This document shows positions 6,963 to 60,130 of a stretch of 64,000 bases of DNA, one piece after another (position 1 is the stretch's first letter; each line of letters starts with the position of its first letter). Where the stretch lies: the NCBI GenBank assembly GCA_014874485.1, contig JADBJK010000055.1, positions 10,243 to 74,242 of the forward strand. The letters are read 5' to 3'. Origin of the DNA: Chloroflexota bacterium (lineage in GTDB: Bacteria > Chloroflexota > Anaerolineae > DTLA01). Under the pieces are notes generated by a model. The model was not told the DNA's origin, did no database searches, and saw only the letters and a list, made by a program, of their open reading frames with translations. The position numbers were made by a program, and so were the translations under genes.

Positions 6963-7139
6963 ATGCTTGGTCATTCCGCCCCAAAATTGAAATACACCCG
7001 CCCCCTCTGGCGGTCTCCAGCAAAGCGTGGAACTGAGCGACACAACCTGCATTCTGGGTCCGCTTTTGACACGCGGCGCGTTCTATGCTATGCTTTGGCC
7101 AACAACACGATACGCAAGGCGACGAACGGGAACAGTAGG

Positions 7140-7455
7140 CGGCCCGCAAAGGCCCCAGCGAGCCGGAACGGTGAAAGCCGGCGCCCGCGCACCGCCGAAC
7201 CCGCCCGGGAGCCAGCGGCGAAAAGGCCCGCCCGATAAGCCGCTTCGGGTTCCGCCCGTTACCGCGGAGCGGTCTGGCGCTTTCCGTCATTGCCGATGAG
7301 CGCACCGACGAAGAACCTCGCGGCAGAGGATTCTTCGCTCCGCTCGGAATGACAATGACCGGAGGCAGACCGGCTGAGCGGCCGATGCCTCGGCCAGCAA
7401 GGTGGTACCACGGGGTCATCCGCCTCGTCCTTGTAGGACGGGGCGTTTTTGTTGA
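7140..7455 (+). promoter_or_regulatory. Putative T-box leader (tRNA-Pro sensing) upstream of proS
   Basis: T-box-like motif aaGGTGGTACCACGG at 7399-7413. It is followed by a hairpin ccgcctcgtcc-ttgt-aggacggggcg plus TTTTT at 7421-7453. A family-1 palindromic repeat (7285-7355) is embedded in the leader. Confidence 0.4.
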
Positions 7456-7520
7456 ACGACGAGCGGTCAGCAGTCAGCCCACGAATTCACGACCGCTGAC
7501 CGCTGACCGCTGATTGCTGA

Positions 7521-8987
<1,467 letters not shown>

Positions 8988-9252
8988 CCGCTAGGCGGTG
9001 ATGCCTCGCCGCGGAGCGCTGAGATTCGCACCGTACGCCGAACGTGGACATGCCCCCGACCCAGCGCCCTCGCGAAGGGACAAGGTGCGGGGCCGCGCAT
9101 GGGGCGGGGGCGAAGCGAACCAACCCCTGACCGCGGGGACTGCCCTGCGGCATTCGGCGCGCAGGCCCGGAGGGCTTCCCTTCCGGGCCTGGCAAGACCG
9201 TTCTCTTGTTGGGCCGGCGTGCGACGGTGCAGGCCGGGCCCCGGCCGCAAAC

Positions 9253-10347
9253 CTACGCCGCCGCGGGCGCGGGGGCGAACATCCGCTTCCTCAGCGCAAA
9301 CGCCACGTTCACCAGGCCGATCATCACCGGCACCTCAATCAGCGGGCCGATGACGGCGGCGAAGGCCGCGCCCGACTCAATCCCGAAGACCGCCACGGCC
9401 ACCGCGATGGCCAGTTCAAAGTTGTTGCTGGCGGCGGTGAAGGCCAGCGTCGTCGTCTTGCGGTAGTCCGCGCCGATCTTGTGCCCCATCCAGAAACTGA
9501 CCAGGAACATGATCACGAAGTAGAAGACCAGCGGGATCGCGATGCGCACCACGTCCAGCGGGATGGTAACGATGAGGTTCCCCTTCAGGCTGAACATCAC
9601 CACGATGGTGAACAGGAGCGCGCCCAGCGTCATCGGGCTGATGCGCGGCACGAACTGGGTCTCGTACCATTCGCGGCCCTTGGCCCGCATGAGGATGAGG
9701 CGGGTGAGGAACCCGGCGATGAACGGGATGCCCAGGTAGATGAACACGCTCTTGGCGATTTCGCCGATGGTAACGTGCACCACCGTGCCCTGCAGGCCGA
9801 ACCACCCGGGCAGCACGGTGATGAACACGTAGGCGTACACGCTATAGAAGAAGACCTGGAACAGGCTGTTGAACGCCACCAGGCCCGCAGCGTACTCCGT
9901 ATCGCCGTGCGCCAGTTCGTTCCACACGATGACCATCGCGATGCAGCGCGCCAGGCCGATCATGATGAGGCCGGCCATGTATTCGGGATAGGCGCGCAGG
10001 AACACGATGGCGAGGATGAACATGAGGATGGGGCCGATGATCCAGTTCTGCAATAGCGAGAACCCCAGGATCTTCCAGTTGCGGAACACGTCCCCCAGTT
10101 CCTCGTAGTGCACCTTCGCCAGCGGCGGGTACATCATGAGGATTAGCCCGATGGCGATGGGGATGTTGGTTGTGCCCACCGACACGGCCTTGTTGAAGGA
10201 CTGCACGGCGGCGGGGAACAGGTATCCCAGGCCCACGCCCACCGCCATCGCCAGGAAAATCCACAGGGTCAGGAAGCGGTCCAGAACCGACAGTTTTGCG
10301 ACCACACGCGGGGCCGCCGTTGGTGCTGCTGAGACGTTTTCTGCCAT
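9253..10347 (-). CDS. arsB: Arsenite efflux transporter, ACR3 family
   Basis: [27 protein letters not shown]...[25 protein letters not shown]...[13 protein letters not shown] is typical ACR3. Start placed at MAENVS with an AAGGAGAG RBS. Confidence 0.9.
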
Positions 10348-10440
10348 TTGCCTCTCTCCTTGCGTGATATGGGTTGCTTTCCAGGGCAACGCAATCTTCC
10401 GACATGAGCGGAAGCGACCGACAGGAGCGCCGGCCCGGGA

Positions 10441-10683
10441 CTATCCCTCGGCCTCCTTGAGCCAGGCGATGATCTCCTCCTTGCGAGGGATGCGCCCCGA
10501 CGACTTCACCCGGCCGTTGATCACCAGCCCAGGGGTTCCGAGAATCGGGTAGGTCATGATCTCCGCGATGTCGGTTACTTTGACAAACTCGGCCTGGACG
10601 CCGGCTTCCTGCGCGGCCTCGCGGGCCACGCGCTCCAGGCGCAGGCAGTTGGGGCACCCCGTGCCCAGGATTCGGATTTCCAT
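10441..10683 (-). CDS. Thioredoxin-fold small protein (redox-active disulfide protein 2 type, CPNC motif)
   Basis: 80 aa, ILGTGCPNCLRLERV ... GTPGLVINGRV. A GGAGGT RBS precedes it. This family is typically paired with COG0701 permeases. Confidence 0.8.
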   Translation of the reverse strand: MEIRILGTGCPNCLRLERVAREAAQEAGVQAEFVKVTDIAEIMTYPILGTPGLVINGRVKSSGRIPRKEEIIAWLKEAEG

Positions 10684-10712
10684 AGAATCATTACCTCCAT
10701 CAAGTGTTGTGA

Positions 10713-12186
10713 TTACTCGCTCGCGTGGGCCGTCGCTGTAACGCGGCGGTTGCGGCGGTCAATCAAGGCCAGCGCCAGCGCCAGCACCCCAATGCTCGCA
10801 ACCAGATACCCCAGCAACACCAGCGCGCTGGCACCGTCCACCCATGCGCCGTAGATGAGCCCAGACAGCGTGCTGAACAGCGCAACCAGCGCCACGTAGG
10901 TCCAGGCTTTCTTCTTGCCGATAATTTTGGACGTGATGAGAATGCTCTGGAGCGAGAGTTCCGGGTCGGCCATCAGGTAGGCGAGGAGCGGACCGCGGTG
11001 CATTCCCAGGTCCAGGAACATCTTGGCGATGGGCACTTCCACCAGCGTGGGGAAGTACATGAACACGCCGAAGACCACACCCGCGAAGGCGCCCAGGAAG
11101 GTGTTCCGGCCGGCCAGCGTCTGAATCCACTCAGGCTGGATAATGCGGCGGACCATGCCGACGACGAACACGCCCACGATGAGGAGCGGGAATATCTGCT
11201 GCACAAAGCGCCACGTCTCCCAGAGCCACTCCTGGATATCGTAGGGGTCAAAGGCTTTCCAAGCGACGACGCCAATGGCGATCATAGTCAGCGCAACGCC
11301 GAACATCTTGCCCGTGAGCAGGATGTCCAGCCCCCCGGCGTGAGGAACCCAGCCAGCAGCAGCCACGATGAACGTGAGGGCAATGAGGCCCAGCGACACC
11401 CACGTCCACCGGTTGAAGCCCTGGTCCACCTTGCCCAGGCCGCGCCAGGCGGTCAGCCCGATGAGCGCCAGCAGGCCGATAAGGATTGCCCCCTGCGCCG
11501 AGACGCCCTCCTCGCCCTTCGCGGCGTCAAAAGGCACCAGTTGGTACAGGAAGTCCTGGAAACGATCCATGCCGCTGATGGGAAGCGTGATGGTCGCGTA
11601 GGAGTTGGTGAACAGGCCAACCTTCAGCGTACCAGCGATGAGCAGCGCGACCAACAGCAACAGGAAGATGAGCGTCTTGCGATGCAGCGTGGTCTTTACA
11701 TCCATCCCGTTGGTCTCCAGGTCGTGCTGGGCATCGTCCTTGCGGAAGATGAGCGCCATGATCAGGCCGATACCGATGCCGAAGGTAACGGACAGGATGA
11801 TGCGGGCCAGCGCGATGTCGCCGCCAATCGCCACGCCGGTATAGGCCAGGGCCAGGATGTTGCCCGCCGGCGCGAAGAACAGGAACGTCATGGCTGGGCC
11901 CAACCCCGCGCCCTTGCGGTAGATGCCCGCGAATAGCGGCACGATGGTGCAGGAGCACACGGCGAGGACGCTCCCCGCGAGCGCCGCGGCGGGGTAGGAA
12001 ATGTACTTTGGGGTATTCCGGCCCAAAAAGCGCGTGATGGCTTCCTTGGGGACAAGGGCCGTGAGCGCGCCCGCGATGAAAAACGCGGGCAGAAGGCACA
12101 ACAGTACGTGGGCCGCGAGGTACGACGCCAGATTCCCCAGGCCCGACTGCAACAGGTACACGATGTAGTTCAGCGCTTCGGACACG
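10713..12186 (-). CDS. Duplicated-domain permease of the COG0701/ArsP-like family
   Basis: Multi-TM protein carrying the CSCTIVPLFAGIYRKGAGLGPAMTFLFFAPAGNILAL hallmark. Start inferred at a GTG preceded by GGGAGG; the longer ORF in the track has no plausible start context. Confidence 0.75.
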
Positions 12187-12393
12187 AAAGCCTCCCGGAG
12201 TTCTGCGAATGATCCGATGGCGGCAGGCTGCCTGCGATGGGTACCTGGCCGGTGTGAATCATTCAGTTTTCTGAATATTTTATGCGGGCCAGTGGATTTG
12301 TCAAATTCGCGCCCTGCGCGCGTTGCCAATCTGCGAGACCTGGTGTATACTGGGACTCGCAACGAAATGTACAGCATGAAGGAGGGCGCGTCC

Positions 12394-13527
12394 ATGAAAG
12401 TCTCCTGTCTGCAGGACAATCTTGCGAAGGGCCTGTCCATCGTTCAGCGCGCGGTCCCAAGCCGCTCCTCTCTCCCCATCCTGGGCACCATTCTGGTTGC
12501 GACCGACGGCCCCCGCCTGAAGTTGGCGGCCACCAATCTGGAGATCGGCATCAACTGCTGGATCGGCGCCAAGGTGGAGGACGAGGGAGCCGTGGCCATT
12601 CCCGCGCGCCTTCTGGTGGATTTCGTCAACTCGCTGCCTCCTGAGCGCATAGAGATGGACCTGAACGTGCGCACCAACACCCTGCACCTGAAGTGCGCCC
12701 GCTTTGAAGCCAACATGAACGGCATGGACCCCTCGGACTTTCCGGTCATCCCCGCGCCGGAGGAGAACAACCGCGTGTCCATGGACGCGGATGTGCTCCG
12801 CGACGTGATACGTCAGGTTACCATCGCCGCCGCCACCGACGAGAGCCGCCCGGTGCTGACCGGCGTTTCGGTAACCGTGGAGGGCGGCCAGGCCACCTTC
12901 GCGGCCGCCGACGGGTTCCGCCTTTCGGTTCGCACCGCGCCACTTAAGGAGGCGGCTGCGGCCCCCATGACGTTCATCGTCCCGGCCCGCGCCCTGGACG
13001 AACTCGCACGCATCGCCACGGACCAGGAAGACCCCGTGGAGATGTGCATCCCCGAAGGGCGCAACCAAATCCTGTTCCACCTGAGCAGCGTGGATTTGGT
13101 CTCGCAACTGATAGAGGGCCGCTTCCCGGACTACAAGCAGATCATCCCGCGCGCCTTCACGACGCGCACGGTGATGAACACCGGCGAACTCCTGCAGGCT
13201 GTGAAGACGACGAACATCTACGCCCGTGAGGCTTCCAACATCGTGAAGTTGCGCATCGTCCCCGGCAATGACCTGGCGCCCGCGCACGTGGAACTGAACG
13301 CGACCGCGGCCCAGGTGGGCGACAACGTGGGCGAGGTGGACGCCACGGTGGAAGGCCAGGGCCTGGAGATCGCCTTCAACTCCCGCTACCTGATTGACGT
13401 GCTGTCCGTCATCTCGGAGGCGCAGGTGGCGCTGGAGACCACCACGCCGTCCAGCCCAGGGGTCATCCGCCCCGTGGGTTCCGGCGACTTCCTGCACGTG
13501 GTGATGCCCATGCACATCACGCAGTAG
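12394..13527 (+). CDS. dnaN: DNA polymerase III beta sliding clamp
   Basis: MKVSCLQDNLAKGLSIVQRAV...PILGTILVATDG...; three-domain length about 377 aa. An AAGGAGGG RBS sits 6 nt upstream of the ATG at 12394. Confidence 0.95.
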   Translation: MKVSCLQDNLAKGLSIVQRAVPSRSSLPILGTILVATDGPRLKLAATNLEIGINCWIGAKVEDEGAVAIPARLLVDFVNSLPPERIEMDLNVRTNTLHLKCARFEANMNGMDPSDFPVIPAPEENNRVSMDADVLRDVIRQVTIAAATDESRPVLTGVSVTVEGGQATFAAADGFRLSVRTAPLKEAAAAPMTFIVPARALDELARIATDQEDPVEMCIPEGRNQILFHLSSVDLVSQLIEGRFPDYKQIIPRAFTTRTVMNTGELLQAVKTTNIYAREASNIVKLRIVPGNDLAPAHVELNATAAQVGDNVGEVDATVEGQGLEIAFNSRYLIDVLSVISEAQVALETTTPSSPGVIRPVGSGDFLHVVMPMHITQ

Positions 13528-13529
13528 GC

Positions 13530-13870
13530 GGGATTCACCGCAGAGAGCGCAGAGAGCGCAGAGGGGAAAAGAATATCGTCTCTCTGCGCTCTCTTTGTCC
13601 ATACGGCGCATCATACCGCGCCGCTTTTGTTTTGCCGCCCTCTGGTGCTATAATCCACAGCGGGTACGCGGAAATCGCCGCCGTTTCACCGCAGAGCACG
13701 CTGAGAGCGCAGAGGGGAAAAGAATATCGTCTCTCTGCGCTCTCTTTGTCCATACGGCGCATCATACCGCGCCGCTTTTGTTTTGCCGCCCTCTGGTGCT
13801 ATAATCCACAGCGGGTACGCGGAAATCGCCGCCGTTTCACCGCAGAGCACGCTGAGAGCGCAGAGGATAG
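13530..13870 (+). repeat. Tandem units of about 153 bp. Each carries a 12-bp perfect hairpin and a terminator, and the middle units carry a TTGttt-N16-TATAAT promoter.
   Basis: Unit: ...caccgcagagcacgctgaGAGAGCGCAGAGgggaaaagaatatcgtCTCTCTGCGCTCTCtttgtccatacGGCGCatcataccGCGCCgcTTTTGTTTTgccgccctctggtgcTATAATccacagcgg. TATAAT occurs at 13649-13654 and 13800-13805. Confidence 0.85.
13661..13785 (+). ncRNA. Candidate small RNA. It would be transcribed from the repeat-borne TATAAT promoter, contain the 12-bp-stem hairpin, and end at an intrinsic terminator.
   Basis: Consensus -10 at 13649-13654, predicted TSS about 7 nt downstream, a stable hairpin, then a GC stem plus cTTTTGTTTT at about 13756-13785. 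No coding potential. Confidence 0.35.
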
Positions 13871-14027
13871 GGCCTTTCGCCATGGCCTTTGGCCTCTGGC
13901 TCCTGGCAGCCGTCCAGAGCAACATGCGGATGGCGAAGGGCCAGCGGCTCTGGCTACCATCTCCGCGTTGTTGGCGCGCGGATCTTTCAGCGCGACCCAA
14001 CGGACAACGGTTCACGGAGAGGATGGT

Positions 14028-15242
14028 TTGCGCCTGAAGCGGTTGACGCTCGTCAATTTCAGAAACTACAGCCGCCTGGAGATCGCCTTTGACCGCCCTC
14101 TGATTGTGCTGCAGGGCGACAACGCCCAGGGGAAAAGCAACCTGCTGGAGGCCATCTACATGTTGGCCACCAGCAAATCGCCCCGCGCCAACAGCGATCG
14201 CGACCTGCTCAACTGGTTCGCCGAGAGCGACATCCAGCCCTACGCCCGCATTGACGCCGAGGTGGAGCGCGGCCCGCGCACCGAGCGAATTGAAATCACC
14301 GTGCTGAAGACCAACGGAGGGACCAACGGCCCTGCCGTTCGCAAGCAGATTCGCATCAACGGGGTCAATCGGCGCGCTCTGGACCTGCTAGGCCACCTGA
14401 ACGTGGTGCTGTTCGTGCCGCAGGATGTGGAACTTGTGGACGGAAGCCCCTCGGTGCGGCGGCGGTACCTGGACATCATGCTGTGCCAGATCAACCCCCG
14501 CTACTGCCGCGCGCTCAGCGAGTACTCGCACGCGGTGGTGCAGCGGAGCCACCTGCTGCGGCGGCTGCGCGAGCGGCCTGGCGACCCCGCCCAGTTGGCC
14601 TACTGGGATGAGATGCTGACCACGCGGGGGTCGGAGGTCATCACCTGGCGGCGGCGCGCGGTCATCGCCCTGGACCAACTGGCGGGCGCCATCCACCGCG
14701 AACTGACCAACGGGAGCGAACTCCTGCGCCTGAAGTATCAGCCCAGCCTGCCGATTCCCGAGGCGCTCCAGCCGCCGCTGGGCTTGGAACTGGCCGTCGC
14801 GCAAGACGAGATCGCGGCGATTCAGGCCGCGTTCGCCGAGCGGCTTGCCCGCCTGCGCCCCGCCGAGTTGCACCAGGGGGCCTGCCTGGTGGGACCCCAC
14901 AGGGATGACTTGCGCTTTCTGGTCAATGGGCGCGACCTCCAGACCTATGGCTCGCGCGGGCAGCAGCGCACGGCGGCGCTGTCGCTCAAGATGGCGGAGA
15001 CCCGCCTGATGCACGCGGAGACGGGCGAGCACCCTGTCCTCCTGCTGGACGACGTCCTGTCCGAACTGGACACGAAGCGGCGCGAGTGCCTGCTGGAAGC
15101 GGTCAACGGCGTGGAGCAGGCCATCCTCACCACCACGGACCTGACGCTGTTCTCGGCGGACTTTCTCGCGCGGGCCGATTCCCTGCGAGTAACCGAGGGA
15201 CGCCTCCAGCGCCTGAATGTGGGGAGTGGGCCTGATGACTAG
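14028..15242 (+). CDS. recF: DNA replication and repair protein RecF
   Basis: LRLKRLTLVNFRNYSRLEIAFDRPLIVLQGDNAQGKSNLLEAIYMLATSKS (Walker A). Start assigned to an in-frame TTG at 14028 preceded by GGAGAGG. The ORF in the track is over-extended into the repeats. Confidence 0.85.
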   Translation: MRLKRLTLVNFRNYSRLEIAFDRPLIVLQGDNAQGKSNLLEAIYMLATSKSPRANSDRDLLNWFAESDIQPYARIDAEVERGPRTERIEITVLKTNGGTNGPAVRKQIRINGVNRRALDLLGHLNVVLFVPQDVELVDGSPSVRRRYLDIMLCQINPRYCRALSEYSHAVVQRSHLLRRLRERPGDPAQLAYWDEMLTTRGSEVITWRRRAVIALDQLAGAIHRELTNGSELLRLKYQPSLPIPEALQPPLGLELAVAQDEIAAIQAAFAERLARLRPAELHQGACLVGPHRDDLRFLVNGRDLQTYGSRGQQRTAALSLKMAETRLMHAETGEHPVLLLDDVLSELDTKRRECLLEAVNGVEQAILTTTDLTLFSADFLARADSLRVTEGRLQRLNVGSGPDD

Positions 15243-15819
15243 GATGCATCGCACCGAGGGAGAGGACATCGCCCTTCTCCACGAGATTCGCGCCTTCGCG
15301 CGAGACCTGCGCCGCTCGGTGGCCCGCATCGCGCCACCCGCGGAAGATGAGCGCCGCCGCGTGTCCGAGAAGCCGCCCCGCGACCTGCTGGAAACGAGCC
15401 TCGCCTGGGTCAAGCAGTTTGTGCTCGCCGAGGCGCAGGTTCGCCCCAAGCCCCCCGACGACACCGCCCGCGAGGTCTATGCCCTGTGGCTGTTCGCGTC
15501 GTACATGGCGGAACATCAGGGGTTGTCGGTCATGGACACCGACTTTGACGCCTTGTACGAATTCTTCTTCTGGTGGTATCCCCGCCAGTGCGGGGATGCC
15601 AGCCCCGAGTTGACGGAAACGCTGTTCGGGTCGCTTCAGGACTTCTTCCAATTTCTGGTGGACAAAGGGGCATTGTCGGATACGGCGGCCGTGGACGACT
15701 TCTGGGGTTACCGAGACGATGCGCTGCGCCTCCTGGCGCTGTACGAGCAACTGGACCCCGAATCGCCGTACTTTGAGGAGCAGTTTGACGCGCTCTTCGG
15801 CCTGGACTGGCAGGAGTAG
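15235..15819 (+). CDS. Hypothetical acidic protein downstream of recF
   Basis: Open frame overlaps the recF stop. No recognisable domain. The position is analogous to small recF-associated genes in other bacteria. Confidence 0.45.
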   Translation: MTRMHRTEGEDIALLHEIRAFARDLRRSVARIAPPAEDERRRVSEKPPRDLLETSLAWVKQFVLAEAQVRPKPPDDTAREVYALWLFASYMAEHQGLSVMDTDFDALYEFFFWWYPRQCGDASPELTETLFGSLQDFFQFLVDKGALSDTAAVDDFWGYRDDALRLLALYEQLDPESPYFEEQFDALFGLDWQE

Positions 15820-17993: not shown

Positions 17994-18523
17994 GATGCCT
18001 CCTTGCGTCGGCGTTTGTCCGAGTTGTGCGGGCTATTATGGCCGATGGCACCGTTTCCGTCAAGCCAGGCGCAACACGTCGTGCGCGCGAGCGGCCCGAC
18101 ACACAACACCTTGTGCTTAACGATAATCACTCTTAAAACTCCGTGCGGGCACAGTTTTAACACGATTTTCCCTTCCTAAAATCCGCAACTTGGTGTAACA
18201 TAAAAGGGCCGTAGAGATGGGCGGCACGGGGGCCTTCCAGGGAGATGCTGGCGGGTGAGCGCGAACCCCGCAGCAGGCATGCGCGAGTACAAGGCCGGAC
18301 ATTGGTGTTCGCGTCCCCAAAAGCAGAAGGCAAGTCGCCCTCTCCGTTACCCGGTTCAACTCCTTCACAAGTTTCTTTGCCCGTGGTTTGCCGACAACAG
18401 AATACGGGATTCTTTGACCCCTCCGGGCTCATGGTAGTTTCGGCGGGCAGGCTGGCCCGGTGGGTTGTAGTTTCTTGTACCCTTTGATCGGAACACAACC
18501 ATCTCTCTTCACAGCGCGTCCAT

Positions 18524-19921
18524 ATGACCAATACATCCGACCGGCAGGACAAACTGACGCCCCTAGAGGCATGGCAGGCAACGCTTGGAGAACTGCAACT
18601 GCAGTTAGCGAAGTCTACCTTTGACGCATGGTTGAAAGATACCACGCTGGTGGCCGCCGAAGACGGCGTCTTCACCATCGGCGCGCGGAACTCCTACGCC
18701 CGCGACTGGTTGGACAACCGCATGCGCGGCCTCGTCAAGCGCACCCTCACGCGCATCGTGGGCCGCCAGGTGGACGTTCGCTTCATCGTGGACGCCAAGC
18801 CGGTGGAATCGCCCGCCCCCAAAGACCTCATCGGATACGACCCGTCCGAGGACGCGCAGGCCCAGGTCAACAGACCCAACGGCCAGGCGTGCGCCCTGAA
18901 TCCGCGCTACACCTTTGAGACCTTCGTCGTGGGGAACGGCAACCGCGTGCCCTACGAAATCTCGCGGGCCGTGAGCGAGCGTCCGGGCATGGCCTACAAC
19001 CCGCTGTTCCTCTACGGCGGCGTGGGCCTGGGCAAGACCCACCTGCTGCACGCCATCGGCCTCAACGCGGCCCAGCGCGGGCTCAACGTGCTCTACGTGC
19101 CCTCGGAGCAATTCACCAACGACCTGGTCTGCGCCATCCGCGCGCGCACCACCGAGGAGTTCCGCAACAAGTACCGCAGCGTGGACGTGCTCCTGCTGGA
19201 CGATATCCAATTCATCGCCGGCAAGGACGCCTCGCAAGAGGAGTTCTTCCACACGTTCAACGCGCTGCACAGCGCCAACCGCCAAATCGTGGTGGCGTGC
19301 GACCGCCCCCCACGCGATGTCCTGGGCCTAGACGAGCGGCTGCGCTCGCGGTTTGAGGGCGGGCTGGTGGTGGAAATCGCCCCGCCCGATTTCGCCGCGC
19401 GCATGGCCATCCTCCAGGCCAAGTCCACGGCCAGGGCCTGTAGCGTCCCGATGCCCATCCTGGAACTCATCGCCCAGACTGTGGAGACCAACGTGCGCGA
19501 ACTGGAAGGCGCGCTCAACCGCGTCATCGCCCAGTGGGAAGCGCTGCGCCAGCCGCCCACGTTGGAGACCACGCAGGCCATCTTGAAGGACATGCTGCCC
19601 AGCAAAGGGCGACCCTCGCCCGAGGCCATCCTGCAGGCTGTAGCCGACTATTTCGGGGTTGACCCCCAGGACATGCTTGGGGCGTCGCGCAAACAACAAA
19701 TCGCCCTGCCCCGCCAGATTGCCATGTACCTGCTATGCGCCGAGACCGACCTCTCGCTCGCGCAGGTCGGTGCGTTCATGGGCAAGCGCGACCACACGAC
19801 CGTCCTCCACGGGCGGGACAAAATCCGCGACCTGATGGAGACCGACGCCGCGATTCGCCTGCATGTCCAGACCATCCGAGAGCGCATGCGCCAGCCAGCC
19901 GCCGTCCGCCAGACGGCGTGA
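18524..19921 (+). CDS. dnaA: Chromosomal replication initiator protein DnaA
   Basis: NPRYTFETFVVGNGNRVPYEISRAV...LFLYGGVGLGKTHLLHAIG (AAA+ Walker A), a sensor region, and the C-terminal DNA-binding domain ...IAMYLLCAETDLSLAQVGAFMGKRDHTTVLH. Confidence 0.95.
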   Translation: MTNTSDRQDKLTPLEAWQATLGELQLQLAKSTFDAWLKDTTLVAAEDGVFTIGARNSYARDWLDNRMRGLVKRTLTRIVGRQVDVRFIVDAKPVESPAPKDLIGYDPSEDAQAQVNRPNGQACALNPRYTFETFVVGNGNRVPYEISRAVSERPGMAYNPLFLYGGVGLGKTHLLHAIGLNAAQRGLNVLYVPSEQFTNDLVCAIRARTTEEFRNKYRSVDVLLLDDIQFIAGKDASQEEFFHTFNALHSANRQIVVACDRPPRDVLGLDERLRSRFEGGLVVEIAPPDFAARMAILQAKSTARACSVPMPILELIAQTVETNVRELEGALNRVIAQWEALRQPPTLETTQAILKDMLPSKGRPSPEAILQAVADYFGVDPQDMLGASRKQQIALPRQIAMYLLCAETDLSLAQVGAFMGKRDHTTVLHGRDKIRDLMETDAAIRLHVQTIRERMRQPAAVRQTA

Positions 19922-19924
19922 TTC

Positions 19925-20956
19925 TCACAGAATCAGCATGGCGTCGCCGAAACTGTAGAAGCGGTACCGCTCGCGAATGGCCTCCTGATACGCCCGATCT
20001 ATCAAATCCTTCCCCGCGAACGCCGACACCAGCAACAACAGCGTGGATCGTGGCAGGTGGAAGTTGGTGATCATCACGTCCACGGCGCGGAACGTGTACC
20101 CAGGGTAAATGTACAGCCCCGTCGGGCCTGAATACGGCTGCGCGACGCCGCTCTGCGCGGCAGTCTCCAGGGCGCGCACCACCGTGGTGCCGACCGCGAC
20201 GACGCGCCGCCCCTCCGCCTTGGCCGCGCGGATGCGCTCGGCCACTTCCGACTTGACCTCGCACCACTCGGTGTGGATGCGGTGCTCCTCAATGTGCTTC
20301 TCGCCGATGGGGCGGAAGGTGTCCATGCCGATGTGCAGTGTAACGAACGCCAACTCGCACCCCATGGCCAGGACTGCATCCAGCAGCGCGGGCGTGAAAT
20401 GCAGCCCTGCCGTGGGCGCGGCGACGGAGCCTTGCACCCGCGCGTACACCGTCTGGTAGCGGTCGGGGTCGCGGAGCGGCTCGTGGATGTAGGGCGGGAG
20501 CGGGATGACGCCGAGGGATTCCAGGTGCGGCTCCACCGGCTCGGCGAACTCCAAGATGCGGCCGCCCGACTCGGTGACGGCGATCACCCGCGCCTCCAGC
20601 GCCTCGCCGAAGACCAGCGTCCCGCCCTCGCGGATTCTTCGCCCGCGCACCAGCGCCTCCCACGTCTGGGGGCCGCGCTTGGCGACGAGCAGCACTTCTA
20701 CCTTGCCGCCGGTTCCGGCCTTGCGCCCGTAGATGCGCGCGGGGATGACGCGGCTATCGTTGCAGACCAGCAGGTCGCCCGCCCGCAGGTACCGCACGAT
20801 GTCGCGGAAGATGCGGTGCTCCAGCGCTCCGGTGTCGCGGTGCACCACCAGCAGGCGCGAGGAATCGCGCGGCTCCACGGGCGTCTGCGCGATGAGTTCG
20901 GGAGGGAGGTGGTAGTCAAAGTCGGTGGTCTTCACGATAGCAGTAACCCTGTGCAA
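19925..20956 (-). CDS. queA: S-adenosylmethionine:tRNA ribosyltransferase-isomerase
   Basis: VKTTDFDYHLPPELIAQTPVEPRDSSRLLVV...GDLLVCNDSRVIPARIYG is the QueA signature. Confidence 0.9.
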   Translation of the reverse strand: MHRVTAIVKTTDFDYHLPPELIAQTPVEPRDSSRLLVVHRDTGALEHRIFRDIVRYLRAGDLLVCNDSRVIPARIYGRKAGTGGKVEVLLVAKRGPQTWEALVRGRRIREGGTLVFGEALEARVIAVTESGGRILEFAEPVEPHLESLGVIPLPPYIHEPLRDPDRYQTVYARVQGSVAAPTAGLHFTPALLDAVLAMGCELAFVTLHIGMDTFRPIGEKHIEEHRIHTEWCEVKSEVAERIRAAKAEGRRVVAVGTTVVRALETAAQSGVAQPYSGPTGLYIYPGYTFRAVDVMITNFHLPRSTLLLLVSAFAGKDLIDRAYQEAIRERYRFYSFGDAMLIL

Positions 20957-21005
20957 ATCACCCAGCAGAATTGGAACGCACTCGGAGGTGGCAGGGAATC
21001 GGTCT

Positions 21006-21740
21006 TCATAGGAGTGCAGCGGAACGCCTCAGAGTTGGACGTTCGTCCCATGTCCGTCCGTCCAGGATACGCCCCGCCTTGGCTTTCCGAACGCCTCCCC
21101 ACTGTTTGAAGAAAAACGGCACTCCGTGCTGTTGACACAGGTCGCGGATGTCTTTTACCCATTTCGGAGAGAGAGGTCTGGCGCCGGGGCCCGACTCGCC
21201 ACCGACTATGACCCAATCTATCCCTGCTAGGCTAAGGTCTTTGATCGGTCCCAGTAAGGGCTCCAGCGAGAGGAACTTGACCAGAGCCCCGGTTTCACGC
21301 AGGTGATCGGCACGGAATGCGTATTCCTGGCTCTCTATGGTAACCCCCATCCACACGTTTGAGGGCCAGTCAAGATTGGCACTGAGATCTCGCAAGCGCT
21401 CCGAGCGCTTCGTAAGCACCTGGAAAGTATGCCAGTGAGCCTGCCTCATCGTATCAAACACCCGCTGGATGAACCAAAGAGGGACCTCCTCGTGGAACAG
21501 GTCGCTCATGGAGTTCACGAAGATCATCTGCGGCTTCTTCCAAGAGAGTGGCACATCTAGGGCATCTTCATGCAGCGTCAATTTGAAGCCCCTGCTGTAG
21601 TGCGGGTGCCCCATTGCTCGCAATCTTATTGCCATCCGCTCAGCATAGCAGTTCCTACAGCCAGGACTGACTTTCGTACACCCCGTCAGCGGATTCCACG
21701 TGGCTTCGGTCCACTCAATGGCACTATTCTGAGCCATCAC
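21006..21740 (-). CDS. Phage Gp37/Gp68 family protein (DUF5131, three-Cys-motif protein)
   Basis: N-terminal [30 protein letters not shown] matches the conserved three-cysteine signature of Pfam Phage_Gp37Gp68. The local GC content is clearly lower than the flanks. Confidence 0.8.
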
Positions 21741-22557
21741 CGAGCCCCCTGTCTTTGTATTTCCTGAAGATGTCTTGGACTATCTTGCCTGCAACTGGCT
21801 TGTGTGAGGCAAAGAACAGATAATACACCACGGCCCCTTTTGTGTTGCGCATCGGAATGGGTTCAGGGACATGCGCAAATCCGGCAACCGTTTGCAGACG
21901 GCGACGAAAGGCTTCCGCGATAATATCGGTATCCACCTTCATCTCCATGCCAAACAGGTTCCTCGTCGTGTCATATGCGATGTCCCGCCATGAGCCGTCA
22001 CCCCAAAACGCATCCATTCTATGTCGCTGCCGCTCGTCCACCCTCTCTGGGTTTTTCCACAATACGTTGCGGTTCATGTCCATGACGGGAAAATTAAGGA
22101 ATATCTCTATTGCTTTCATCTCTCCCGCTGCCTGCACAACTTCCCAGTTCAAATGCAGACCATAGGGATCGAGCAAACACAACCCCCGCCGATAGTCTTC
22201 ATAGCGGACTCTCGTGAAAATCTCGCTCAGCAGCAGTTTATTGCAGTCACCTTCGTGTACGTAGACGTTTGGATACTTCGCAACGGTCTCTCTCAGTGCC
22301 TGGGTTTTTCGCCTATCCAGATCAATGAGGTGGTATTCTTTGAAAGGCGGCTTGACCTCCAATGCATTCAGCGGCGACCCTAACACGAAACCCTGTGTTC
22401 TGCGAGAGATGTGTTTGCCAGCACCTGCGAAGGCATCTATGTAGACATGATGCAGTGAAGGGCTGCGTTGGGCACTGAGGATGGTGGAGTATGCCTGTGC
22501 ATACTCGCGCACGATATCCAACTTGATCTCTGACCAGTAGCCAATCTCGTCAAACAT
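21724..22557 (-). CDS. Three-Cys-motif partner protein TcmP-like (SAM-methyltransferase-like DAFAGAG motif)
   Basis: It lies immediately upstream of the Gp37/Gp68 gene on the same strand, and its stop overlaps that gene's start by 17 nt. Contains [13 protein letters not shown]...HLIDLD. Start chosen at MFDEIG, preceded by AGGAGA. Low GC. Confidence 0.65.
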
Positions 22558-22651
22558 GTCATCTCCTTGCCGCTGGCAGTCAAGCAACATTGCCCCCTGC
22601 GTTGATTCTTGCACTGTCGTCGCAATCCGTCAAGTTTCAGCCGGGGAGAAG

Positions 22652-23644
22652 TTAGCGTTCCTTATCAACCCATTCTCTGACCGCATCTACATTCGCCTCG
22701 GGCGTGCCCAGGTGGATGACGCAGCCCGGGCCGAGGATGAAGCGGTCGCCGCCCGTCTGCGCGAGGGCATCTCGGGCCTCGGCGACGGCCTCCTCGGGCA
22801 CCCCGCTGTGGAACGCGCCGCCCGGGGCATGATTCAGCCCGCCGATGAGCACCCCCGAGAAGTGCGCCCGCGCCTCCGCCAGGCTTGGCCCGGTCGGGCT
22901 ACGGTCGTGCCAGTTGACCGCCTGCACGGGATAGTCCCGCGCCACCTCAAACCGCAAGTTGGGCCTGCACAGGTGCAGGATGTTGAACCACGTCCTTGCG
23001 GCGACCCGCTCCAACACAGGCAGGTCGTAGGCCAGGCCGAACTCGCGGAATGCGTCGGGCGGGAGCGCGTCGCGCGTGGCCCCCTGCACCGCCAGGAAGA
23101 TGCCATCCGCGCCCGCCTCCACGCAGGCCTGGGCGAAGTCGGCGGCGGTCTCGGTGATGGCCTTCAGCCCCACGTGCAGGTCGGGGCCGGCCGACAGGGC
23201 GTGCCGGTACACCGCGTCGCCCGCCAGGTTCCGCGCGATGGTGAGCGGCGCGAACGCCGTCGCCACGATGGGAATCCCCGACCCCAGTTCGTCGCGCAGC
23301 ATGCGCAGCGCCCGCACCTGATTGCCCAGAGCGCCCCGCAGGGGGTCAAGCGGGCGCAGGCTCCGCCAATCGGCGGGCGCTTTGACAACGTGCTCGGCCA
23401 CGGGCACGTGCCCCTCGCTGCGGTCGTAGCCCGCGAAGCGGTTGCCCCAGTCCACGGTAAACGCCCAGTTGTTGAACATCGCTTTCACAAAGTCCAGGTC
23501 CCAACGGCGGACGAAGCGGACCGTCGCCTTCACCAGACCTTCCGGTGTGGCGTCTTCGGGCGGCAGATGCCGCCAGATGGCGAACGGGACGCGGTCCGTC
23601 TTCTCGCCTCGGATGACCCGCCTGATTCGCTCCGATTTGTCCAT
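22652..23644 (-). CDS. Uroporphyrinogen decarboxylase (URO-D) family protein (MtaA/CmuA-like)
   Basis: 330 aa with a URO-D-like sequence. AGGAG RBS. Confidence 0.75.
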   Translation of the reverse strand: MDKSERIRRVIRGEKTDRVPFAIWRHLPPEDATPEGLVKATVRFVRRWDLDFVKAMFNNWAFTVDWGNRFAGYDRSEGHVPVAEHVVKAPADWRSLRPLDPLRGALGNQVRALRMLRDELGSGIPIVATAFAPLTIARNLAGDAVYRHALSAGPDLHVGLKAITETAADFAQACVEAGADGIFLAVQGATRDALPPDAFREFGLAYDLPVLERVAARTWFNILHLCRPNLRFEVARDYPVQAVNWHDRSPTGPSLAEARAHFSGVLIGGLNHAPGGAFHSGVPEEAVAEARDALAQTGGDRFILGPGCVIHLGTPEANVDAVREWVDKER

Positions 23645-30749: not shown

Positions 30750-32675
30750 TTGAAGTCCATAGCCGTGCCCCCAACAAAGTGCCTCTTCCGCCTAGCCGCC
30801 CTGATCGTCATCCTGGCGCTGGCCCTGTTGCCGACGGCCATCCACGCCCAGCAGCCGGTCGTCCGCGCCGTGCTGTTCTACTCGGACACCTGCCCGGTCT
30901 GCCACACGGTGCTGGAACAAGTCCTGCCGCCCCTTCAGGCGCAGTACGGCTCGCAACTGGAAATCGCGAAGGTGGAGATCACCCCGCCGGCGAACTACGA
31001 ACTCCTGCTGCACATGGAGCAGGTGCACGGCGTCCCGCCGGACAAGGGGGTGGTGCCCGAACTGTTCATCGGCGACCGCGTGCTGTTCGGTGCCGACGAG
31101 ATTCGCGACAACCTGCCCGCGCTGATCCAGACCTACGCGGCGCAGGGCGGCGTGGACTGGCCCGCGGGCTACGGCGACCAGGCGGGACCCACCACGTGGC
31201 CGCCCACCGGCGTCAAGCCCACGCCCAAGGCGTGCCATATCTGCGACGAGGGCGACCCCGTCGTGAAGATGTACTTCTTCTGGAGCAGCCTCTGCCCCGA
31301 ATGCCGCCGCGTGCAGGATGAGGTACTCGGGCCGCTGCAGGAGCGGTACGACCGCCAGTTGGTGGTGGACGCCCGCGATGTGGAGAAGTCCCCCGCCGAC
31401 TACGACCTGCTCACGGCGCTGGAGCGGCAGTTCGGCACGGGCGAAGGGGCGTTCCCGGTCATCTTCATCGGCGACCATGTGCTCCATGGCGAGCAGGCGG
31501 CCCGCGAACAGCTGGCCGCGCTGGTGGAATACTACATGAACGAGGGCGGCGTGGATTTCCCCAAACTGACCGGCCCCGCCGCGCCATCGGGCACGCCCAC
31601 CGGCCAGCAGCCCGCCATCCACCTGGCCTACTTCTACCAGGTGGGCTGCCACGAGTGCGACCGCGCCCAGTATGACCTGAAGTACTTGCAGAGCAAGTAC
31701 CCGCAGTTGCAGGTTCACGAGTACGACATCAAGGAGCAGGCCGCGCTGGCTGAGTGGCTGGGCGAACGCACCGGCGTGCCGCTGAACAAGCGCCTCACCG
31801 CGCCCGCGGCATTCGTCGGTTCGGACTTCCTGCTGGGCGGGGACATCAACGCCCAGACGCTGGAGAACGTCGTGAAGAAGTACGCGGCGACCGGCAGCGA
31901 GGCCTACTGGCGGGAGCAGGAAGACCTGTCGCAGGCGGGCGAGAGCATCCTGAGCCGCTTCCGCTCGTTCGGCGCGCTCACGGTCGTGGCCGCGGGCCTG
32001 GTGGACGGGCTGAACCCGTGCGCCTTCGCCACCATCGTGTTCTTCATCTCGTACCTGGCCTTCACGGGGCGCAAGGGCCGCGACATCCTGCTGGTGGGGG
32101 GCATGTTCGCCCTGGGCGTCTTCCTGACGTACCTGGGCGTCGGGGTGGGCCTGCTCAAGTTCCTGGCCAGCCTGCCGTTCCTGCCCGCCATCGGCCGCTA
32201 CCTGTACGGCTTCACGGCGGCGCTGTGCTTGCTCCTGGCGATAGGCAGCCTGTACGACTGGTATCAGGCGCGGCGCGGGCGGCCCGAAGAGATGAAACTG
32301 AAACTGCCCACGCGGATGCGCCGCTGGATCAACCGCGTCATCCGCGAAGGGGCCAGTGCGCGGGCTATCGCGGGGGTTGCGTTCATCACCGGCGCGGTTG
32401 TGTCTCTGATTGAGTTGGCCTGCACCGGACAGGTTTACCTGCCTACCATCCTGTTCGTCCTCGGCGTGCCGGCGTTGAGGGTGCGGGCGTTGGCCTATCT
32501 GCTGGTGTACAACATCGCGTTCGTAGTGCCGCTCGTCATCGTGTTCCTCATGGCCTACTGGGGGACGACATCGGAGCGGCTTGGGCAGTTCATCAACCGT
32601 CGCGCCGGCACCATCAAACTGGCGACCGCAGGGCTGTTCACCCTGCTGGCCGTTTGGATGATCACGTTCCTGTGA
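30750..32675 (+). CDS. Fusion protein: signal peptide, three glutaredoxin/thioredoxin-like CxxC domains (CPVC, CPEC, CHEC), and a C-terminal CcdA/DsbD-type thiol-disulfide transporter
   Basis: Three repeats, each with a CxxC...(V/F)P..FIGD..L.G pattern. The C-terminal 6-TM region carries LNPCAFATIVFF and a second Cys, as in CcdA. Start assigned to a TTG just after the upstream stop. Confidence 0.75.
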   Translation: MKSIAVPPTKCLFRLAALIVILALALLPTAIHAQQPVVRAVLFYSDTCPVCHTVLEQVLPPLQAQYGSQLEIAKVEITPPANYELLLHMEQVHGVPPDKGVVPELFIGDRVLFGADEIRDNLPALIQTYAAQGGVDWPAGYGDQAGPTTWPPTGVKPTPKACHICDEGDPVVKMYFFWSSLCPECRRVQDEVLGPLQERYDRQLVVDARDVEKSPADYDLLTALERQFGTGEGAFPVIFIGDHVLHGEQAAREQLAALVEYYMNEGGVDFPKLTGPAAPSGTPTGQQPAIHLAYFYQVGCHECDRAQYDLKYLQSKYPQLQVHEYDIKEQAALAEWLGERTGVPLNKRLTAPAAFVGSDFLLGGDINAQTLENVVKKYAATGSEAYWREQEDLSQAGESILSRFRSFGALTVVAAGLVDGLNPCAFATIVFFISYLAFTGRKGRDILLVGGMFALGVFLTYLGVGVGLLKFLASLPFLPAIGRYLYGFTAALCLLLAIGSLYDWYQARRGRPEEMKLKLPTRMRRWINRVIREGASARAIAGVAFITGAVVSLIELACTGQVYLPTILFVLGVPALRVRALAYLLVYNIAFVVPLVIVFLMAYWGTTSERLGQFINRRAGTIKLATAGLFTLLAVWMITFL

Positions 32676-32789
32676 TAGCCGCAGCCCGCGAGCGCGGCCC
32701 CGACTTTTGGGAAAAACCGGCGTAACGTGGTATCATTGTGAGTGCGGCGCTGGCCCCGCGATGGGCATCCGGCAGCGGTGCCGCGTAGT

Positions 32790-33005
32790 ACCCTGCCACA
32801 GGGTTTCTGGATGGTGTGTCATTGCGAGGGCGCGCAGCGCCCGAAGCAATCCCAGTCCCTGTCTGTCATGCTGAGCGAAGCGAAGCATCAGCGAAGCGAA
32901 GCATCTCGGTTCACGAGATTCTTCGGCGCTCCGCGCCTCAGAATGACAGTCGGTCCGGGATTGCTTCGCTCCGCTCGCAATGACAACGGGCGGTTTTCTC
33001 TGTGG
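32790..33005. repeat. Cluster of family-1 palindromic elements (two adjacent copies)
   Basis: tgtcattgcgagggcgcgcagcgcccgaagcaatcc ... catctcggttcacgagattcttcggcgctccgcgcctcagaatgaca ... gattgcttcgctccgctcgcaatgaca. Confidence 0.85.
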
Positions 33006-59921: not shown

Positions 59922-59939
59922 GCTGACCGGGTTCCGAAT

Positions 59940-60130
59940 GCGTTTGCGACTGTCATTGCGAGGGTGCAGCGCCGAAGAATCTCGGCGTCCGAGATGCTTC
60001 GTTCGCAATGACAATGTGGGGAAAGCGCCAATCCGCGCGAATGAACAGAAGTGGCACCCCTGCATTCGTGTAGATTCGTGCGATTCGTGGATTGAACATT
60101 CGCGCAGCGCCGAAGAATCTCGGCGTGGTG
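59940..60130. repeat. Family-1 palindromic element plus an inverted cacgaat-family motif
   Basis: tgtcattgcgagggtgcagcgccgaagaatctcggcgtccgagatgcttcgttcgcaatgaca; cgcgaatgaacagaagtggcacccctgcattcgtgtagattcgtgcgattcgtgg. Confidence 0.85.

Follow-up and report, generated by a model that had tools for sequence, protein, structure and literature searches.

In a 64,000-nucleotide stretch of DNA from a Chloroflexota bacterium (hereafter the window), two genes of low GC content sit between queA and a gene of the URO-D family, and the question that this locus raises is how the two genes came to be there and what their products might do together. A sequence-only reading of the region had described them as a foreign cassette of phage origin, and had put them forward as a candidate for a previously undescribed system of DNA modification or anti-phage defence. 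Coordinates are those of the window throughout, and every feature for which coordinates are given, including both genes of the pair, lies on the minus strand, so that the two are indeed co-oriented as that reading had stated.

The cassette as a whole is about 1.73 kb long (20938..22664) and consists of a leader, a TcmP gene (21724..22557, 277 aa), a DUF5131 (Gp37/Gp68) gene (21006..21737, 243 aa) and a trailer; the first gene (PDC-M41A) encodes an RlmJ-like class-I SAM-methyltransferase-fold protein and the second (PDC-M41B) a three-Cys, radical-SAM-like protein. A 17-nt overlap between the two had been reported, and this is correct for the mechanical open reading frames (21006-21740 and 21724-22614), where DUF5131 begins at the GTG at 21740, but the ATG starts at 22557 (TcmP) and 21737 (DUF5131) are the ones backed by public gene calls and by homologue alignments, and with these the overlap of TcmP stop and DUF5131 start is 14 nt (21724..21737). 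A Shine-Dalgarno sequence, AAGGAG (22563..22568), precedes the ATG of TcmP by 5 nt, its GGAG being invariant in the leader alignment. A consensus scan also places a sigma-70-type promoter inside the cassette (22605..22633; TTGACG, 17 nt, then TGC-AAGAAT with an extended -10); the window and the related loci L088 and L186/L187 share TTGAC and GTGC.A.AAT without change, the remainder of the leader being poorly conserved. A riboswitch or other leader RNA element was considered and rejected, as Rfam finds no RNA element anywhere in the cassette.

The low GC content stands up when a profile is run, although the figures first quoted for it (near 50%, against about 65% in the flanks) need a small correction: the gene pair has a GC content of 0.537, against 0.68 for queA and 0.70 for the URO-D-like gene. 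The cassette lies at 0.52-0.55, where the window as a whole averages 0.653 (sd 0.032 for 1-kb windows), the pair is the lowest-GC stretch within the 64 kb, and GC3 is 0.60-0.65 for the pair and 0.87-0.90 for the flanks.

Upstream of the cassette is the URO-D-family gene, which is MtaA/CmuA-like (22652..23644; PF01208, E 2.8e-33), with scores under the cut-offs for the MtaA/CmuA models themselves, and downstream is queA (19925..20935, 336 aa; 465.6 bits to the QueA model NF001140, cut-off 324), for which a GTG start at 20935 is inferred from relatives and from 336-aa public gene calls. In three close relatives (L008, L009 and L010) the site is empty, with the stop codon of the URO-D-like gene overlapping the start of queA; homology between the window and these relatives stops at around 22664-22668 and returns at around 20937-20939, and because their site is empty the cassette must be an insertion. 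Taken with its deviant GC content, this bears out the claim of a foreign insertion between the two flanking genes. The last codons of the URO-D-like gene were altered by the event, the C-terminus reading REWVDKER* in the window and REWVGS* in L008.

At least three other related lineages (L088, L185 and L186/L187) also have the cassette at this site; dS between cassette copies exceeds 1, and dN/dS between the window and L088 copies is 0.07-0.12. Recent acquisition by a single lineage is ruled out by the filled sites and the high dS, while the sharing of the site by related lineages, together with purifying selection, shows the cassette to be old and polymorphic. In short, it was inserted into a URO-D-like/queA operon and then kept under purifying selection. 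As to the means of insertion, no integrase or transposase genes are present at the locus, the cassette has no terminal repeats of note and no target-site duplication, there is no conserved 3' (attC-like) site (the trailer is not conserved, and is down to about 8 nt in L185), and the only tRNA is 27 kb away; on these grounds an integron cassette, a transposon or insertion sequence, and a tRNA-targeted island were each rejected. Nor does queA appear to be a partner. It lies directly downstream of the cassette in at least four lineages, all within one clade to which the adjacency is limited, and it was not seen as a recurrent neighbour of the pair in 80 metagenome loci. Universal conservation of the pair beside queA had been named in advance as a sign of a housekeeping role; instead, the three relatives lack it, no pair was found within 8 kb of queA at any of 77 more distant Chloroflexota queA loci, and a housekeeping tie to queA can be rejected.

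Of the two proteins, TcmP matches TIGR04474 with 208.6 bits (cut-off 53) over profile positions 1-262 of 263, and this is its only NCBIfam match; Pfam gives none, the RlmJ models of Pfam and NCBIfam do not match it, and among PDB sequences neither TcmP nor DUF5131 has a match at E <= 10. A class-I Rossmann methyltransferase fold with SAM-binding motifs is present. Motif I, DAFAGAG (22417..22437), is the glycine-rich SAM-binding loop and is located where the first Rossmann strand of the predicted model ends; its residues D41, F43, G45 and G47 do not vary among 50 homologues. The motif IV-like DPYG (D130, P131, Y132 and G133; 22159..22170), also invariant in homologues, aligns with DPPY in E. 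coli RlmJ but is shorter by one residue (a proline), and reads DPFG in the PDC-M30A paralogue. The nearest structures are the RNA methyltransferases RlmJ, Trm1, TYW2 and Trm5, and on the evidence of the model TcmP has the fold of a SAM methyltransferase, with the rRNA m6A methyltransferase RlmJ as its closest likeness and with the SAM-binding motifs intact. It must be remembered that methyl transfer by TcmP is not assured, because the DPPY loop is short by one residue.

DUF5131 matches PF07505 over its full length (340.5 bits, gathering score 28.9, E 7e-102, profile 1-243 of 243). Its three-Cys motif (C20, C27 and C30, spaced CX6CX2C; 21642..21698) forms part of the signature WNPxTGCxxxSxGCxxCYA, in which W, N, P, T, G, C20, S, G, C27, C30, Y and A are all invariant across 47 homologues; the identification of both proteins made in the sequence-only reading, as a Gp37/Gp68 three-Cys protein and a TcmP partner carrying DAFAGAG, is thus sound. 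The canonical radical SAM spacing CX3CX2C is absent, the motif aligning with that of a PA0069-like radical SAM protein when a 3-residue insertion is allowed; the Pfam Radical_SAM model (PF04055) finds no match at E <= 0.01, and SFLD carries DUF5131 as a radical SAM subgroup. The predicted fold is a partial (beta/alpha)6 barrel; strand 1 leads into the loop that holds the Cys triad, and this cluster loop is of low confidence in the model. The best structural match is spore photoproduct lyase, with TYW1 also among the matches, and as modelled DUF5131 is a small partial barrel of the radical SAM type, closest to spore photoproduct lyase.

The two genes are closely tied to one another, at least as seen from TcmP. 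Among the 61 loci with enough downstream sequence, TcmP is followed by DUF5131 in 60, the genes are co-directional in 60, and TcmP is adjoined by a three-Cys or radical-SAM partner in all 61; at locus L160 a canonical CX3CX2C radical SAM protein of the PA0069/Rv2578c type stands in DUF5131's place. Most related loci have a stop/start overlap of 1-4 nt, and adjacency is kept across three arrangements (co-directional in either order, and convergent). The pairing had been called obligate, and this is so from the TcmP side but not for DUF5131, which occurs in 181 phage records against only 5 with a TcmP match, some of the phage copies being apparently solitary. The supposed phage origin is not supported, the window's own TcmP subfamily being almost entirely cellular, with 3 matches in the 2.9 million contigs of IMG/VR. 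The TcmP family as a whole comprises 2,473 representative clusters (E <= 1e-10). No third conserved gene recurs in 87 loci, the recurrent ‘families’ given by neighbourhood clustering being shadow ORFs inside the pair, and the cassette contains no nuclease gene and hence lacks the combination of methyltransferase and cognate nuclease that marks restriction-modification. Possible TcmP-DUF5131 fusions, which might have pointed to a complex of the two proteins, were also considered, but among 150 representatives these amount to two fragmentary read-throughs (P0314 and P0316) and a duplicated artefact (P0343), and are unconvincing. Between the window and Bellilinea the B subunits are 73% identical and the A subunits 27%, the Bellilinea A subunit having a wHTH domain; sequence comparison suggests, then, a variable TcmP-type subunit and a highly conserved DUF5131 subunit.

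Evidence bearing on defence comes from other loci rather than from the window. The pair had been placed in an island context, whereas it actually lies in a replication-origin neighbourhood, among dnaA, dnaN, recF-like, gidB, queA and transporter genes (the full list within about 10 kb being DUF4139, NfeD, hydrolase, MFS, URO-D-like, queA, dnaA, beta-CASP, gidB, recF-like and dnaN), with no defence gene over that distance; loci L089 and L092 likewise have no defence neighbours. A DnaA-box cluster was searched for beside dnaA and not found. Elsewhere the association with defence that had been proposed does appear: in a neighbourhood sample of 10 long loci, with crude ORF calling and a core-gene control, four have as a neighbour of the pair a DrmD-like SNF2 helicase, Type III Mod/Res, a BPTD_3080 restriction enzyme, GajA or an SspE/HEC-06-like gene, and the control set of queA loci has none of these. 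Bellilinea caldifistulae is a cultured relative whose copy of the sister system lies in a BREX island, with PglZ-BrxL and Helicase-DUF2290 preceding the pair. Across the four loci and Bellilinea, the classes represented are Type III RM, DISARM-like, Gabija and BREX. In prophage-type phages of Gordonia the pair adjoins the immunity repressor, and in S. meliloti TcmP is grouped with the validated defence gene hna in one putative transcription unit (PMC12445080).

PADLOC assigns the window's adjacent genes to PDC-M41 (A model, E 4.9e-82; B model, E 1.2e-118), a phage-defence candidate put forward through ‘guilt-by-embedding’, the pair having been found embedded in defence systems (Payne et al., bioRxiv 10.1101/2024.01.29.577857). 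A position in or next to known defence systems, which is how PDC-M41 was recognised, is seen in the four long loci and in Bellilinea and is not seen at the window locus. A pair that is both TIGRFAM-defined and a PADLOC candidate can hardly be called previously undescribed. That it has no assigned biochemical function remains true as far as the literature on DUF5131, TcmP and PDC-M41 goes, where we found annotation mentions only and no paper giving a biochemical function or a phage test.

The explanation we favour, and to which we would give about an even chance, has two joined parts: that the cassette is a self-promoted accessory two-gene module of the TcmP/DUF5131 family, and that the pair, as we infer its function, is a two-enzyme SAM-dependent nucleic-acid-modifying module employed in conflict with phages or mobile elements. 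Both proteins would act as one enzyme system on a nucleic-acid base, most likely in DNA. The variable TcmP-type subunit would bind SAM and present or N-methylate the target base, and the conserved DUF5131 would use a [4Fe-4S] cluster to cleave a second SAM reductively and would carry out radical chemistry at that base, the nearest precedent being Trm5 followed by TYW1, an N-methyltransferase and then a radical SAM enzyme. The modification or lesion so formed would serve in conflict between cell, phage and mobile DNA, in an immune or self-marking role, which is proposed on the ground that copies of the pair lie within RM, BREX and DISARM-like loci and within the immunity regions of prophages. 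In favour of conflict are the defence neighbours, the Gordonia immunity region, the S. meliloti hna unit and the embedding reported by Payne et al. Against it, the window, L089 and L092 are without defence neighbours, there is no nuclease or effector and no obvious discrimination of self from non-self, and the pair proteins are 65-80% identical across phyla, which would be unusual for immune genes; the sample of 10 loci behind the count of defence neighbours is also a small one. A DNA substrate is called into question by the fact that TcmP's top structural matches act on RNA, and the proposed mechanism by the short DPPY loop, the lack of a PF04055 match to DUF5131 and the low-confidence cluster loop.

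A more ambitious form of this explanation, which we advance tentatively and think rather doubtful, is that the two proteins make up a self-sufficient enzyme of immunity or counter-immunity, in which a variable, methyltransferase-like subunit does the targeting and radical SAM chemistry writes a novel modification or lesion into nucleic acid; by analogy, this may for example be a reaction of the spore photoproduct lyase type run forward on a methylated base. If true, it would represent a new chemical class of nucleic-acid conflict system, distinct from methylation, phosphorothioation, deazaguanine insertion and the products of viperin.

The absence of any nuclease or effector from the two genes would also fit a pair that did no more than place an unusual base mark on the DNA that carries it, as an anti-restriction or orphan epigenetic function and not as an immune system. 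Its occurrence on conjugative plasmids, in phages, beside integrative elements and inside RM-type loci (where additional modification functions are common) fits such a role, as does the solitary copy in a core operon of the window's genome. However, phage self-modification genes are usually found among replication genes, whereas the temperate phages of Gordonia carry the pair in their lysogeny/immunity region, and the rarity of this TcmP subfamily in viral contigs also weighs against the idea; we think it unlikely.

The structural likeness of DUF5131 to spore photoproduct lyase leads naturally to a second alternative, DNA repair, in which DUF5131 would directly reverse a lesion by radical chemistry (possibly an alkyl or crosslink lesion, removed without any need for oxygen), while TcmP would flip out and recognise the damaged base and not be a methyl donor. 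The degenerate DPYG loop is what might be expected of a non-catalytic binder, TcmP can pair instead with a PA0069/Rv2578c-type radical SAM protein, high conservation across phyla fits a universal substrate, and many phages carry DUF5131 alone among replication and recombination genes (RecET, RuvC, RepA, DNA methylase). Less easily accommodated are the patchy and horizontally mobile distribution, with presence/absence polymorphism among close relatives, the repeated occurrence of the pair inside prophage immunity regions and inside loci of the RM, BREX and DISARM-like kinds, and the invariance of all the SAM-binding motifs of TcmP, all of which make repair improbable in our view.

We consider it quite improbable that the pair hypermodifies a base of rRNA or tRNA, either as a housekeeping add-on linked to queA and to the modification of tRNA or as a mobile ribosome protection of the Cfr/Erm kind. 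RlmJ, Trm1, TYW2 and Trm5, the closest structures to TcmP, do all act on RNA, conservation is very high, and in at least four lineages of the clade queA directly follows the cassette. Set against this are the empty sites of three close relatives, the 0/77 count for queA loci further afield and the metagenome loci in which queA does not recur, together with the wHTH domain on the paralogous A subunit and the DNA-targeting defence genes found as neighbours elsewhere. Finally, a viperin-like scheme for a small antiviral molecule, in which DUF5131 makes a chain-terminating analogue from a free nucleotide that TcmP modifies, would dispense with effector and self/non-self discrimination, and so suits a two-gene system, but the DPPY-like loop and RlmJ-like fold suggest a base within a polymer, the paralogous A subunit has its wHTH domain, no sequence-level link to viperin exists, and the scheme can be given very little credence.

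What makes the locus worth pursuing is that an abundant pair of SAM enzymes (2,473 TcmP clusters, and DUF5131 in 181 phage records) is without an assigned reaction, and that the proposed model of an RlmJ-like targeting or methylating subunit combined with an SPL-like radical SAM catalytic subunit is testable. Residues for mutation can be named in both proteins (C20, C27 and C30 in DUF5131; D41, G45, D130 and Y132 in TcmP), the related strains with filled and empty sites offer a natural comparison, and Bellilinea caldifistulae is a cultured host of the sister system. If the pair proves defensive, a radical-SAM-based mechanism would be added to bacterial immunity; if not, it would illustrate that candidates found through ‘guilt-by-embedding’ can be repair or epigenetic functions.

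Among known systems, PDC-M41 itself is the closest, both window proteins matching its A and B models in adjacent, co-oriented genes; however, it was defined from copies in BREX, DISARM or Type I RM, whereas the window copy stands alone, in a core operon not far from dnaA, and membership is silent on mechanism because PDC-M41 is itself only a candidate. Its sister PDC-M30 has the same B family, with an A subunit that is a TcmP homologue bearing a wHTH extension. The radical-SAM defence system Ophion is unrelated. The radical SAM mobile pair A and B (TIGR04471 and TIGR04470) resembles TcmP/DUF5131 in being a mobile two-gene set around radical-SAM-type proteins, but there both partners are radical SAM proteins while here one is of methyltransferase fold, and the scores are far under the equivalog cut-offs (78.6 bits for DUF5131 against 355, and 83 bits for the L160 partner against 410). 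Prokaryotic viperins (pVips) act on free nucleotides, require no methyltransferase-like partner and show no sequence similarity to the pair. Compared with spore photoproduct lyase and COG1533-type radical SAM proteins (PA0069, Rv2578c), DUF5131 is much smaller (243 aa) and has CX6CX2C in place of CX3CX2C. In a comparison with RlmJ, the 23S rRNA m6A2030 methyltransferase, whose family includes 2oo3, RlmJ has a gap where TcmP has the glycine loop DAFAGAG, the RlmJ catalytic loop is DPPY where TcmP has DPYG, and TcmP, unlike RlmJ, is always accompanied by a radical-SAM-type partner. Wybutosine synthesis, in which Trm5 and then TYW1 act on the same base, sets a pattern for the sharing of work proposed here: TYW2, Trm5 and TYW1 are all among the structural matches of the pair, but whereas the genes for Trm5 and TYW1 are unlinked and encode housekeeping tRNA enzymes, those for TcmP and DUF5131 are linked.

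Both genes lie on the minus strand of the window, at 20957-22651, as a co-oriented, overlapping pair with TcmP upstream of DUF5131. For TcmP a mechanical open reading frame runs from a GTG at 22614, while an identical public gene call gives 277 aa from an ATG at 22557, with AAGGAG 5 nt 5' of that ATG; for DUF5131 an ATG at 21737 (243 aa) is favoured over a GTG at 21740 because all homologues start with MA or MS, so that with ATG starts for both genes the overlap becomes 14 nt and not the 17 nt first proposed. The low GC content seen at first inspection was borne out when computed: the pair stands at 0.537, against 0.68 for queA, 0.70 for the URO-D-like gene and a window mean of 0.653, and is the window's lowest-GC stretch, about 4 standard deviations under the mean of 1-kb windows, with GC3 of 0.60-0.65 (flanks, 0.87-0.90). 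A further, milder dip (0.576-0.588), at 59700-62500, has unremarkable content: an ABC permease and a SBP_bac_5 solute-binding protein.

The family identities proposed in the sequence-only reading are clear from profile searches: DUF5131 matches PF07505 over the whole model (E 7e-102), and TcmP, for which a Pfam search gave no match, scores 208.6 bits against TIGR04474 (cut-off 53). That reading also held the pair to be a previously undescribed system, which it is not, since both proteins match the PADLOC candidate PDC-M41 (A, 4.9e-82; B, 1.2e-118); DUF5131 also matches PDC-M30B. The PDC systems are 145 candidates that were picked out by their location inside BREX, DISARM, Type I RM or Hma loci, and in the supplement to the same work PDC-M41 is cassette CAS_00149, its B family being shared with PDC-M30 (Payne et al., bioRxiv 10.1101/2024.01.29.577857). 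The locus is thus an additional instance of a catalogued but uncharacterised pair, for which no paper assigning a function was found in the literature; at an E threshold of 1e-3 the TcmP family comprises 4,514 representative clusters, and at 1e-10 it comprises 2,473. Overall, the earlier description of the locus was confirmed, and its interpretation held in part.

The host genome is a MAG from Anaerolineae or Anaerolineales, and scanning GTDB genomes with queA yielded 80 Chloroflexota loci. The three closest relatives (L008, with flanking proteins 91-95% identical, L009 and L010) keep the gene order NfeD, hydrolase, MFS, URO-D-like, queA, dnaA, and all three sites are empty: stop codon of the URO-D-like gene and start codon of queA overlap as GTGA or TTGA and enclose no further sequence; at the remaining 77 loci neither TcmP nor DUF5131 occurs within 8 kb of queA, so that universal conservation beside queA, which would have pointed to a housekeeping role, is not what is seen. 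Homology to the empty sites stops at about 22664 and restarts at about 20938, giving an insert of about 1.73 kb, which also changed how the URO-D-like gene ends, its final codons having been replaced (REWVDKER* in place of REWVGS*). The identical site is occupied in at least three further related lineages: L088 (flanks 83-88%, TcmP 80%, DUF5131 86% identical to the window), L185 (queA 84%, DUF5131 81%) and L186/L187 (TcmP 75%, DUF5131 77%). The cassette was therefore inserted, though long ago. The stop-to-start overlap in empty-site relatives (L008:7030-9020; window genes 22652-23644 and 19925-20935) suggests that the URO-D-family (MtaA/CmuA-like) gene and queA form a conserved coupled operon that the cassette has split.

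Comparison of the window with L088 shows purifying selection on the pair (dN/dS 0.07-0.12), which is therefore functional; dS is 1.05-1.20 for the pair and 0.52-0.72 for the flanks, and both copies retain GC3 near 0.6. As the closest relative is empty and more distant ones are filled, presence or absence does not track flank similarity, and the simplest account would be that filled and empty alleles have been swapped among relatives by homologous recombination. An integrase, transposase, terminal repeat, target duplication, conserved 3' site and nearby tRNA were sought around the cassette and none was found. In a leader that is otherwise poorly conserved, a promoter footprint (TTGAC-N17-TGC-(A/G)A(G/A)AAT) and a GGAG SD are preserved, so the cassette appears to carry its own expression signals. 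The two copies (window 20938-22664 and L088:780-2326) are separated by a synonymous divergence above one per site, yet GC3 has remained at 0.60-0.65 in both, without drift to the host value, which is 0.83-0.90 in the genes of the two host lineages; GC-biased gene conversion might act less strongly on accessory genes.

Among 87 TcmP-subfamily loci, 61 had enough downstream sequence to judge, and in 60 of these DUF5131 follows TcmP on the same strand, mostly with 1-4 nt of overlap; no third gene family recurs around the pair at the 87 loci. The exception, L160, is a natural partner swap: the DUF5131 position (L160:859-1761) is taken by a 301-aa radical SAM protein that is PA0069/Rv2578c-like and has the canonical CX3CX2C motif, so that DUF5131 is interchangeable with a canonical radical SAM protein. 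By hhalign the three-Cys motif of DUF5131 aligns to INPYVGCE---HGCKHCYC of that protein, and CX6CX2C is therefore the canonical motif with a three-residue insertion. The pairing proposed as obligate thus holds for TcmP, with a three-Cys or radical SAM partner in 61/61, but not for DUF5131, which occurs in 181 phage records with a TcmP match in only 5. In some phages a PDC-M30A-type partner replaces TcmP, and other phage copies appear solitary, within replication modules; the window's TcmP subfamily is nearly absent from IMG/VR (3 contigs). On alphaproteobacterial plasmids DUF5131 comes first and TcmP is adjacent, and in Gordonia phages, Synechococcus phages and S. meliloti pSymA the adjacent genes are convergent. 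Of the two subunits B is the conserved and A the variable one: the Bellilinea DUF5131 is 73% identical to that of the window, whereas its partner, a PDC-M30A protein with a wHTH domain, has only 27% identity to TcmP across the domain common to both (hhalign probability 98.6%). Gordonia phage BaxterFox (L093, NC_031226.1) has an unannotated DUF5131 frame at 32200-32928 (+), where three small opposite-strand ORFs are annotated; across 234 aa its product shares 57% identity with DUF5131 of the window.

The island context first proposed is not found in the window, where the pair is surrounded by genes of the origin region and of transport and the nearest 10 kb or so hold no defence gene (L089 and L092 have similar surroundings, likewise without defence genes), but it is found at four related loci. 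At ten related loci with long flanks, 129 neighbour proteins match 440 PADLOC families, including Type III methyltransferases (to 9e-289), a Type III restriction enzyme (3e-194), DrmD-like SNF2 helicases (to 8e-220), GajA (2e-203), a BPTD_3080 restriction enzyme (1202 bits) and an SspE/HEC-06-like protein, concentrated in L107, L113, L133 and L143; 124 control proteins from ten queA loci match 51 families and no RM, DISARM or Gabija component, a contrast that is semi-quantitative, the sample being small, the ORF calls crude and the control loci core and partly related. L107 is an example of the pair embedded within an RM locus: at 6999-15421 it is accompanied by a gene for a REP-associated tyrosine transposase, and the two are flanked by a BPTD_3080-family restriction endonuclease on one side and a Type III-like methyltransferase on the other. 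In Bellilinea caldifistulae (L190, 1-9732) the sister pair, PDC-M30A plus DUF5131, directly follows GmrSD_N, PglZ, BrxL and Helicase-DUF2290 and precedes an integrase/ParA/FtsK (integrative) element, and in Gordonia phages the pair lies between integrase and immunity repressor. In S. meliloti TcmP has been assigned to one putative transcription unit with hna (PMC12445080), and COG4422 is enriched in sponge symbionts together with defence COGs (PMC5649159).

Elsewhere in the window, a sub-threshold Rfam match inside dnaA (19013-19082, minus strand) to AsdA, an antisense RNA of dnaA mRNA (31.6 bits, gathering score 52, E 0.0014), is probably due to chance. The 530-nt gap beside dnaA (17994-18523) has lower GC (0.57-0.59), and no DnaA box close to consensus was found in it; instead, TAATCCACA boxes occur at 13651 and 13802 (within 13651-13810).

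The analysis shows the two protein folds with their conserved motifs, a strict adjacency and recurring defence-locus settings, and the mechanism is inferred. Working jointly, the two proteins would act on a base in nucleic acid: the TcmP-type subunit would recognise it and possibly N-methylate it, and DUF5131 would use a further SAM molecule for radical chemistry. Three features favour DNA as the substrate, namely the wHTH of the paralogous A subunit, the likeness of the B subunit to SPL and neighbours that are directed at DNA. At the level of the system, a part in conflicts involving phages or mobile elements is the reading with most support, and we give it about even credence. A modification-only or anti-restriction cassette, which would share the RM neighbourhoods, is improbable, though foremost among the alternatives; DNA repair, with the SPL-like subunit on its side and the recurrent defence loci on the other, follows as another unlikely reading. 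The best structural matches of TcmP are RNA enzymes, a counterpoint to a DNA substrate, and RNA modification is still quite unlikely beside the features favouring DNA. A viperin-like route, with a small molecule in place of a base, is very improbable. The analysis yields a concrete model and mutational targets, and for testing it strains that naturally differ in having a filled or an empty site are at hand, as is a relative in culture (Bellilinea caldifistulae, Anaerolineae); interest is moderate, owing to the large family of uncharacterised chemistry.

As to known systems, a sequence search detected no solved structure for either protein. DUF5131 (predicted structure pLDDT 75, the cluster loop poorly modelled) matches TIGR04471 at E 4.6e-22, under that model's cut-off, and did not match the Pfam Radical_SAM model; SFLD places it as a radical SAM subgroup in one megacluster with spore photoproduct lyase (PMC9477430). 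TcmP (pLDDT 87.8) resembles E. coli RlmJ by profile comparison (E 2.9e-5), GSPL aligning with GSPL and LLDP-YG with LIDPPYE, and its homologues show little or no variation in the glycine loop DAFAGAG, D79, G103-D104 and D130-P-Y-G133. This likeness and the conserved motifs make TcmP look like a SAM-binding amino-methyltransferase relative; its catalytic loop is one residue short, so that methyl transfer is putative.
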